UHGV virus genome: UHGV-0131019
From: a virus
Strand: one strand, 5' to 3'
Length of the DNA stretch: 21,433 bases
Shown piece after piece: positions 10,240 to 10,469 of this stretch (the first letter of the stretch is position 1; each line of letters starts with the position of its first letter). Under the pieces are notes generated by a model. It saw only the letters and a list, made by a program, of their open reading frames with translations, made no database searches and had not been told where the DNA came from. The translations under genes and the position numbers were made by a program.

Positions 10240-10300
10240 CCACTTGATTTTTGATGGGTCCTCCAAGTGGGGGGCCTGCCACGGGGCGGGAGCGTCGCGG
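10240..10300. other. cos-like region (cosN-like GC-rich core with an upstream inverted repeat)
   Basis: GGGCGGGAGCGTCGCGG (10284-10300) matches 13 of 17 positions of the lambda cohesive-end region GGGCGGCGACCTCGCGG (recalled). It lies ~185 bp upstream of the small terminase start, as cosN does relative to Nu1 in lambda. Inverted repeat CCACTTG/CAAGTGG at 10240-10270. Confidence 0.4.
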
Positions 10301-10338
10301 AAAAAGGCTAGTTTTTGAAATTTCATTCGTCATCACCA

Positions 10339-10370
10339 CCACTGTAATAGATTGATATTACAGTGGTTTT
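10339..10370. repeat. Perfect 11-bp inverted repeat followed by a T-run (in the cosB-equivalent position)
   Basis: CCACTGTAATA-gattga-TATTACAGTGG followed by TTTTATTTTTAT. Located between the cosN-like core and the small terminase start. Confidence 0.4.
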
Positions 10371-10469
10371 ATTTTTATGGTGTCGATTTTGATTGTTTTT
10401 TGTTCATCACTAACACCGTTTGCCTAAAGTTGTTCGCGAGATGCATGTTTAAAACATTCTGGAGCGGGT

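Follow-up and report, generated by a model that had tools for sequence, protein, structure and literature searches.

In phage lambda the packaging site cos has the order cosQ-cosN-I2-cosB. The last of these elements is composed, in lambda as in phi80, 21 and Gifsy-1, of R3-I1-R2-R1, with R2 in the opposite orientation (PMC9026076; PMC4669245). [quoted passage not shown] Published work and database records already identify, by homology, the cos sites of the group formed by the Gifsy phages, cdtI and the mEp phages; the ends of LLS, which has the same family of small terminase as the locus described here, were deduced from an analogy to lambda and mEp213 (PMC12315714). What is new here is the cos site of the present prophage and a palindrome around its IHF core, both previously undescribed.

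The window, that is, the whole stretch of 21,433 nucleotides analysed (UHGV virus genome UHGV-0131019), is a lambdoid late region read along the + strand. Its sequence makes it likely that positions 10256-10411 form a complete cos site of the lambda type, belonging to an E. coli lambdoid prophage of the mEp460/cdtI group (Table 1). Genes for a DNA methyltransferase and a holin sit between those for the Q-like antiterminator and the lysozyme. The interval that leads from the antiterminator gene to the methyltransferase and lysis genes is interrupted by two minus-strand genes (3147-4546), phrog_8552 (150 aa) and phrog_7651 (310 aa), which carry no functional annotation and gave no match in PADLOC.

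Downstream of cos, the large terminase gene starts at the last base of the small terminase gene. Its product matches PF05876 (GpA_ATPase, E = 7.6e-72) and PF20454 (GpA_nuclease, E = 3.3e-85), and a gpA-type large terminase gene thus adjoins the cos site, as it does in lambda; a gene for a lambda-family portal follows, and both protein types are common to lambda and the window. The small terminases differ. That of lambda is Nu1, whereas the window protein has DUF1441 as its sole Pfam match and none to the lambda Nu1 family; a sequence search of the PDB returned neither a homologue nor a solved structure for it. Many phage records give DUF1441 proteins the label terminase small subunit, and it is to this protein, not to Nu1, that the site would owe its packaging specificity. 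The two marks of Nu1-type packaging specificity, a Nu1-family protein and R sequences of the CGTTTCC type, are both absent from the window.

Table 1. Features of the late region and cos site of the window, with positions counted from the first base of the cohesive end in the window and in lambda (NC_001416)
Feature	Coordinates	Strand	Remark	Position in window	Position in lambda
Q-like antiterminator gene	2726-3103				
Lysozyme gene	7214-7747				
Rz-like gene	7726-8265				
Accessory cassette, two genes	8406-10165		between Rz-like gene and cos		
Terminator-like hairpin AACCACTGAC-GTCT-GTCGGTGGTT + T6	10191-10220	+	closes accessory cassette, outside cos		
7-bp inverted repeat CCACTTG / CAAGTGG	10240-10246 / 10264-10270		brackets cosQ; incidental		
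cosQ equivalent GGGTCCT, packaging-termination signal	10256-10262	+	identical to lambda 7-mer	-27..-21	-29..-23
cosN cohesive-end sequence	10284-10295	+	lambda alignment, relatives' record starts	GGGCGGGAGCGT	GGGCGGCGACCT
Conserved block CGCGGAAAAAGGCTAGTTTTTGAAATTTCATT	10296-10327	+	between cosN and R3, lambda I2 position		
Putative R3-like small-terminase binding element GTCATCACC, direct	10329-10337	+	positional homology	+46	+53
12-bp perfect palindrome, 6-nt loop	10338-10367	+	mEp460-like cos family only		
Predicted IHF-binding consensus match TATCAATCTATTA (consensus WATCAANNNNTTR)	10345-10357	-	lambda I1 equivalent		
T-run TTTATTTTTA, potential U-tract	10368-10377	+	minus-strand A-tract		
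Putative R2-like element, inverted; ATCGACACC on minus strand	10379-10387	-	positional homology	+96	+109
Putative R1-like element TTCATCACT, direct; TTTTTTG just before	10403-10411	+	positional homology	+120	+155
DUF1441-family small terminase gene	10470-10964	+	PF07278, E = 2.7e-41	+187 (ATG)	+191 (ATG)
Lambda gpA-type large terminase gene, ATPase and endonuclease domains	10964-13066	+	Pfam matches		

cosQ, cosN and the conserved block

The window carries the same 7-bp cosQ as lambda, 21 nt 5' of the cohesive-end sequence and thus within the region, some 20-30 bp upstream of cosN, where a cosQ is to be found. This element is kept in most relatives, although GGGTCC was not found in Gifsy-2, Fels-1 and Chris1 in a comparison of 12 phages. 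The spacer between cosQ and cosN (10263-10283) measures 21 nt in the window, one nucleotide less than in the closest relatives (22 nt) and two less than in lambda (23 nt), and the closest relatives have GGGGTGGCC in it where the window has GGGGGGCC.

The cohesive-end sequence begins 186 bp before the ATG of the small-terminase gene (10470) and shares 8 of its 12 bases with that of lambda: bases 1-6 all agree, while positions 7, 8, 9 and 11 differ. An earlier, sequence-only reading of this DNA, which had placed a lambda-like GC-rich cohesive-end core about 185 bp upstream of the small terminase gene, was therefore correct on this point. The half of the cohesive end that differs from lambda is the half free to vary among lambda-like phages (Feiss and colleagues, PMC4669245). 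As in lambda, CG dinucleotides flank cosN on both sides. Staggered nicks would fall at 10283/10284 on the top strand and at 10295/10296 on the bottom strand, leaving 12-nt 5' overhangs.

Records of related phages agree with this placement, although their starts may themselves have been set by homology: those of cdtI, whose 12-nt end is identical to that of the window, and of Tritos open exactly at GGGCGGGAGCGT and close at ...GCCACG, and the LLS record labels the homologous 12-mer "5' extended single-strand cohesive site". The virion assembly mEp460_4F5 breaks 5 nt upstream of the predicted nick. A full-text literature search for the 12-mer GGGCGGGAGCGT returned one unrelated paper and nothing else.

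The block that follows cosN is near-identical across the relatives, and at least 120 stretches of DNA from viral contigs contain a 21-mer taken from it, CGCGGAAAAAGGCTAGTTTTT. On the other side of cosN, homology ends early: in megablast comparisons with phage records, the similarity to phi458, 569R4, mEp460, PhiR40_1 and others starts only at about 10249-10252.

The inverted repeat CCACTTG/CAAGTGG had been read as a flanking part of cos located just upstream of the core. The repeat does exist, its arms being 17 nt apart, but it surrounds cosQ and does not lie wholly upstream of the core. The left arm, CCACTTG, was not found in any relative. It belongs to cassette-specific DNA, beyond the region homologous to the relatives, and for this reason the repeat was rejected as a cos element. 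A second, overlapping inverted pair, CCCACTT/AAGTGGG, is present at the same place, and at least one 7-bp inverted repeat arises in about 4% of mononucleotide shuffles of 10220-10283.

A different sequence, the near-perfect palindrome ATGATAATCATTATCA, is located 5-10 bp upstream of cosQ in lambda (NC_001416, ~48452-48470), mEp043, CP-1639 and VT1-Sakai, with a degraded copy in phi458. It matches the E. coli Fur-box consensus, GATAATGATAATCATTATC, at 15 of 15 positions. The palindrome is absent from 10220-10255 of the window, where cassette-junction DNA is found instead.

The proposed cosB and the palindrome around its putative IHF core

A comparison of 12 phages over the segment that precedes the DUF1441 small-terminase gene revealed a common layout. 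First comes a (G)TCATCA(T/C)C-type element in direct orientation, then an AT-rich centre with ATTGAT or TTGTTGAT and an inverted element, GATGTCGAA or GATGATGA; last are a T-run and, behind it, another direct element, GTTCGACAT or GTTCATCA. Direct-inverted-direct triples of 10-mers were also sought in an unbiased way. As a positive control, the known R3, R2 and R1 of lambda were recovered, and triples appeared at +43..50, +93..99 and +119..124 in Gifsy-2, Fels-1, VT1-Sakai, mEp043, yong2 and Chris1. The R3-like, inverted R2-like and R1-like elements of the window, counted from the cohesive end, match these positions. In the window itself, as in PhiR40_1, cdtI and CP-1639, the search was captured by AT-rich or hairpin sequence, the hairpin being what captured it in the window, and the three R-like copies of the window are only modestly alike, a hand count giving agreement at about 18 of 30 positions; consequently, they were assigned by positional homology. 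The R3-like TCGTCATCA is invariant in the 39 distinct variants of the window's own family that were aligned, and the R2-like GTGTCGA/GATGTCGAA is kept across cos families.

Order and orientation of the putative elements are those of lambda, and the distances to the small-terminase ATG are nearly the same. The R-like sequences differ, being of the type TTC(A/G)(T/A)CAYC in the window and CGTTTCC in lambda, and R2 and R1 are spaced by 24 bp in the window and by 46 bp in lambda. Gifsy-1, Gifsy-2, Fels-1, VT1-Sakai, mEp043, mEp213, LLS and cdtI share with the window the DUF1441 family of small terminase, cosQ (though not in every phage), cosN, the I2-like block and the positions of R3, R2 and R1, which in the window are putative. 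None of them, however, has the 12-bp palindrome around the IHF core, which is restricted to the family of mEp460, phi458 and Ayreon-like phages, and the lambda IHF site is likewise not embedded in a perfect palindrome.

The palindrome is formed by ACCACTGTAATA (10338-10349) pairing with TATTACAGTGGT (10356-10367), and TTTATTTTTA follows directly. The sequence-only reading had described an 11-bp perfect hairpin with a T-run at the position of the lambda terminase and IHF sites; palindrome, T-run and position are all as it stated, and only the arms proved to be longer, at 12 bp. The centre of the palindrome, loop and inner stem together, is made up by TATCAATCTATTA, a perfect match to the IHF consensus WATCAANNNNTTR and one of only two in the 21.4-kb window, which stands exactly between the R3-like and R2-like elements. 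The same consensus is found at the same place in cdtI, Chris1 and CP-1639. A flanking A/T tract accompanies the match: on the minus strand, the A-tract complementary to the T-run ends 9 nt 5' of the core. In the H' site of lambda attP, which likewise combines a perfect 13-bp consensus with a 5' A-tract, this distance is 8 nt, and the geometry at 10345-10377 presumably resembles that of this strong IHF site, although H' serves recombination and the present site packaging. On these sequence grounds, the hairpin and its T-run are probably the IHF site of cosB, the T-run being the flanking A-tract, and IHF binding is predicted there.

Taken together, these elements would work in a lambda-like manner. 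The gpA-type terminase would nick cosN to produce the 12-nt 5' cohesive ends of sequence GGGCGGGAGCGT, and cosQ would signal the termination of packaging. The cosB segment would anchor the DUF1441 small terminase on R3 (direct), R2 (inverted) and R1 (direct), with IHF bending the DNA between R3 and R2. As RNA, the same element would resemble an intrinsic terminator, which Q-driven late transcription would read through.

Conservation of the hairpin and its possible roles

To follow the element across phages, 118 cos segments from viral contigs were anchored on the conserved 21-mer, giving 75 distinct variants over the 79 nt after the anchor. The mEp460-like family of the window accounts for 66 of the loci, and its 39 distinct variants, when aligned, are 93% identical. 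Neither the consensus positions YAA....TTGATW nor the T-run varies within this family; variation is greatest at columns 23-24, two of the four N positions in the consensus. The PhiR40-like, cdtI-like and TCATCATCATC-type families lack the hairpin (their minimum free energies range from -1 to -10 kcal/mol); they nevertheless retain an ATTGAT or ATTGAA core and the T-run. The hairpin has also been lost in some sequences whose R3 and R2 elements are those of the window. Since every family, the hairpin-free ones included, keeps the core and the T-run, the conserved unit is the IHF core with its A/T tract, the T-run must be conserved for a reason other than the hairpin, and the arms are specific to a lineage. 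Judged from this pattern, the cos function of the mEp460-like family would in all likelihood not need them.

The stability of the hairpin lies well above chance level. The RNA hairpin, with 12 pairs (four of them GC) and a loop of 6, has a minimum free energy of -16.7 kcal/mol (z -4.7), and none of 200 shuffles folds as well. In the mEp460-like family, 90% of the hairpin pair cells are standard pairs. Two pairs have changed on both sides, and pair 14-39 occurs as U-G (21), U-A (7), C-G (4) and A-U (2). The covariation score is 0.114 as against 0.091 in shuffles, with 3 of 500 shuffles reaching 0.114, a value that related sequences alone can produce according to the documentation of the tool. 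On the + strand, one-sided transitions produce G-U at a larger number of pairs than A-C. The folding energy and the covariation within the family weakly suggest some selection on hairpin pairing.

A stem-loop of canonical dimensions with a U-run is also what defines an intrinsic terminator, from which the window element differs in lying inside a packaging site, in a Q-antiterminated operon, and in being conserved in one cos family only. The sequence-only reading had suggested that the hairpin, if it terminates transcription, would part the accessory cassette and the lysis transcript from the head genes, which does not happen in lambda. Apart from the terminator-like anatomy, what is known of the region runs counter to such an end of the late transcript in lytic growth: the window encodes a Q-like antiterminator (2726-3103), the cassette has a terminator of its own (10191-10220), and the stretch from the hairpin to the small-terminase gene yielded no convincing promoter, the sole promoter-like match, at 9 of 12 positions, overlapping the hairpin and the number of matches being at the level of shuffles. 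Efficient termination would consequently leave the head genes promoterless. Q-modified polymerase reads through intrinsic terminators in lambda, and lambdoid head genes depend on Q read-through across cos. Because the hairpin sits on the expected IHF site, it probably does not split the late transcript, and termination during lytic growth appears extremely improbable.

A role restricted to polymerase that has not been modified by Q is easier to reconcile with these data. The hairpin would then be a working + strand intrinsic terminator that overlaps the IHF site and is compatible with IHF binding, a second, back-up terminator stopping, for example, read-through from the cassette in a lysogen before it reaches the terminase and head genes. 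The canonical anatomy (12-bp stem GC-rich at its base, 6-nt loop, UUUAUUUUUA) and the folding energy fit such a role, as do the lack of a U-run after the stem on the minus strand, the high proportion of paired cells with four pair types at 14-39, the covariation score and the preference for G-U over A-C on the + strand. Yet a strong terminator already stands behind the cassette at 10191-10220, and sister cos families lack the hairpin, as do some members whose R3 and R2 are the same. Conservation of the U-run does not depend on the hairpin, and double changes are limited to two pairs, with shuffle values that relatedness can give. We therefore regard a back-up terminator as unlikely, while allowing it a certain chance. 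It is more doubtful still that the mEp460-like phages possess a dual-use element, which binds IHF as DNA and has been selected as RNA for a terminator or a 3'-stabilizing hairpin. Such an element would insulate the terminase and head genes from accessory transcription in the prophage state, and IHF or a cruciform might couple the two roles; we consider this extension, too, to be quite improbable.

The palindrome could also act as DNA: a dimeric protein, for instance the small terminase or some regulator, might bind it, or a cruciform extruded from it might assist the bending of cosB. The dyad is perfect over 12 bp and folds well as single-stranded DNA (-10.1 kcal/mol, z -5.6). However, the commonest variants in the mEp460-like family break it with T/G (21 of 39 at pair 14-39), its centre at 10352.5 is off the symmetry centre of R3 and R2, and the hairpin is missing in other families with the same type of small terminase, all of which makes a function of the dyad itself very unlikely. 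The hairpin was also considered as an extension of the R3/R2 dyad and rejected, as the centres of symmetry differ (~10352.5 and ~10358). An Rfam scan of 9900-10700 at E <= 1 yielded one chance-level match to an sRNA, located on the minus strand and scoring 15.5 bits where the gathering score is 60, and a literature search for a terminator inside cosB found no relevant paper.

Accessory cassette, exchange of cosB and significance

The accessory cassette upstream of cos consists of a 156-aa ORF and, after it, a gene whose 430-aa product contains DUF6575 and DUF7226; the pair shows weak matches to the two components of the anti-phage system PD-T4-10 (A: E = 1e-5; B: E = 3e-4). The terminator-like hairpin that closes the cassette starts 26 nt past the stop codon of the DUF6575 gene (gene end 10165) and has an RNA minimum free energy of -16.0 kcal/mol (z -5.7).

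Some part of a query covering 8266-10480 is matched in 2,109 of 5,426 complete E. coli genomes; among the matches listed, the partial ones cover 10251-10480 of the window, the cos and small-terminase end. The cassette itself is present in only eight of the 5,426 genomes. In four of these eight, the match stops at 10324-10345, and the cassette, cosQ, cosN and the I2-like block are joined to a different cosB. This breakpoint represents a recombination joint just before or within R3. As the same cassette, cosQ, cosN and I2-like block can carry a different cosB, the data are consistent with cosB and the small-terminase gene forming an exchangeable specificity module whose two parts would be swapped together.

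The same type of cos is repeated in the 12-kb contig IMGVR_UViG_2574179916_000005, which has three cosQ-cosN-I2 copies (59-138, 8194-8273 and 10730-10809). Behind the first copy stand a DUF1441 small-terminase gene and a large-terminase gene truncated past its ATPase domain; then come, in order, genes for an integrase, a Bro-N protein and an AAA_25 protein, and the second copy. Past the latter lie a protease-capsid fusion gene, the third copy and another DUF1441 gene. This contig looks like a satellite-like or capsid-forming island, or like stacked prophage remnants.

The present analysis leaves the current understanding of packaging and late transcription unchanged. For automated annotation of terminators in phage genomes it contains a caution, since a textbook-looking terminator can be the by-product of an IHF site. 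For a very common group of E. coli prophages, it provides the exact coordinates of the cosQ, cosN and cosB sub-sites, which aid the orientation of genomes and the prediction of packaging specificity in DUF1441 phages and of co-packaged satellites.
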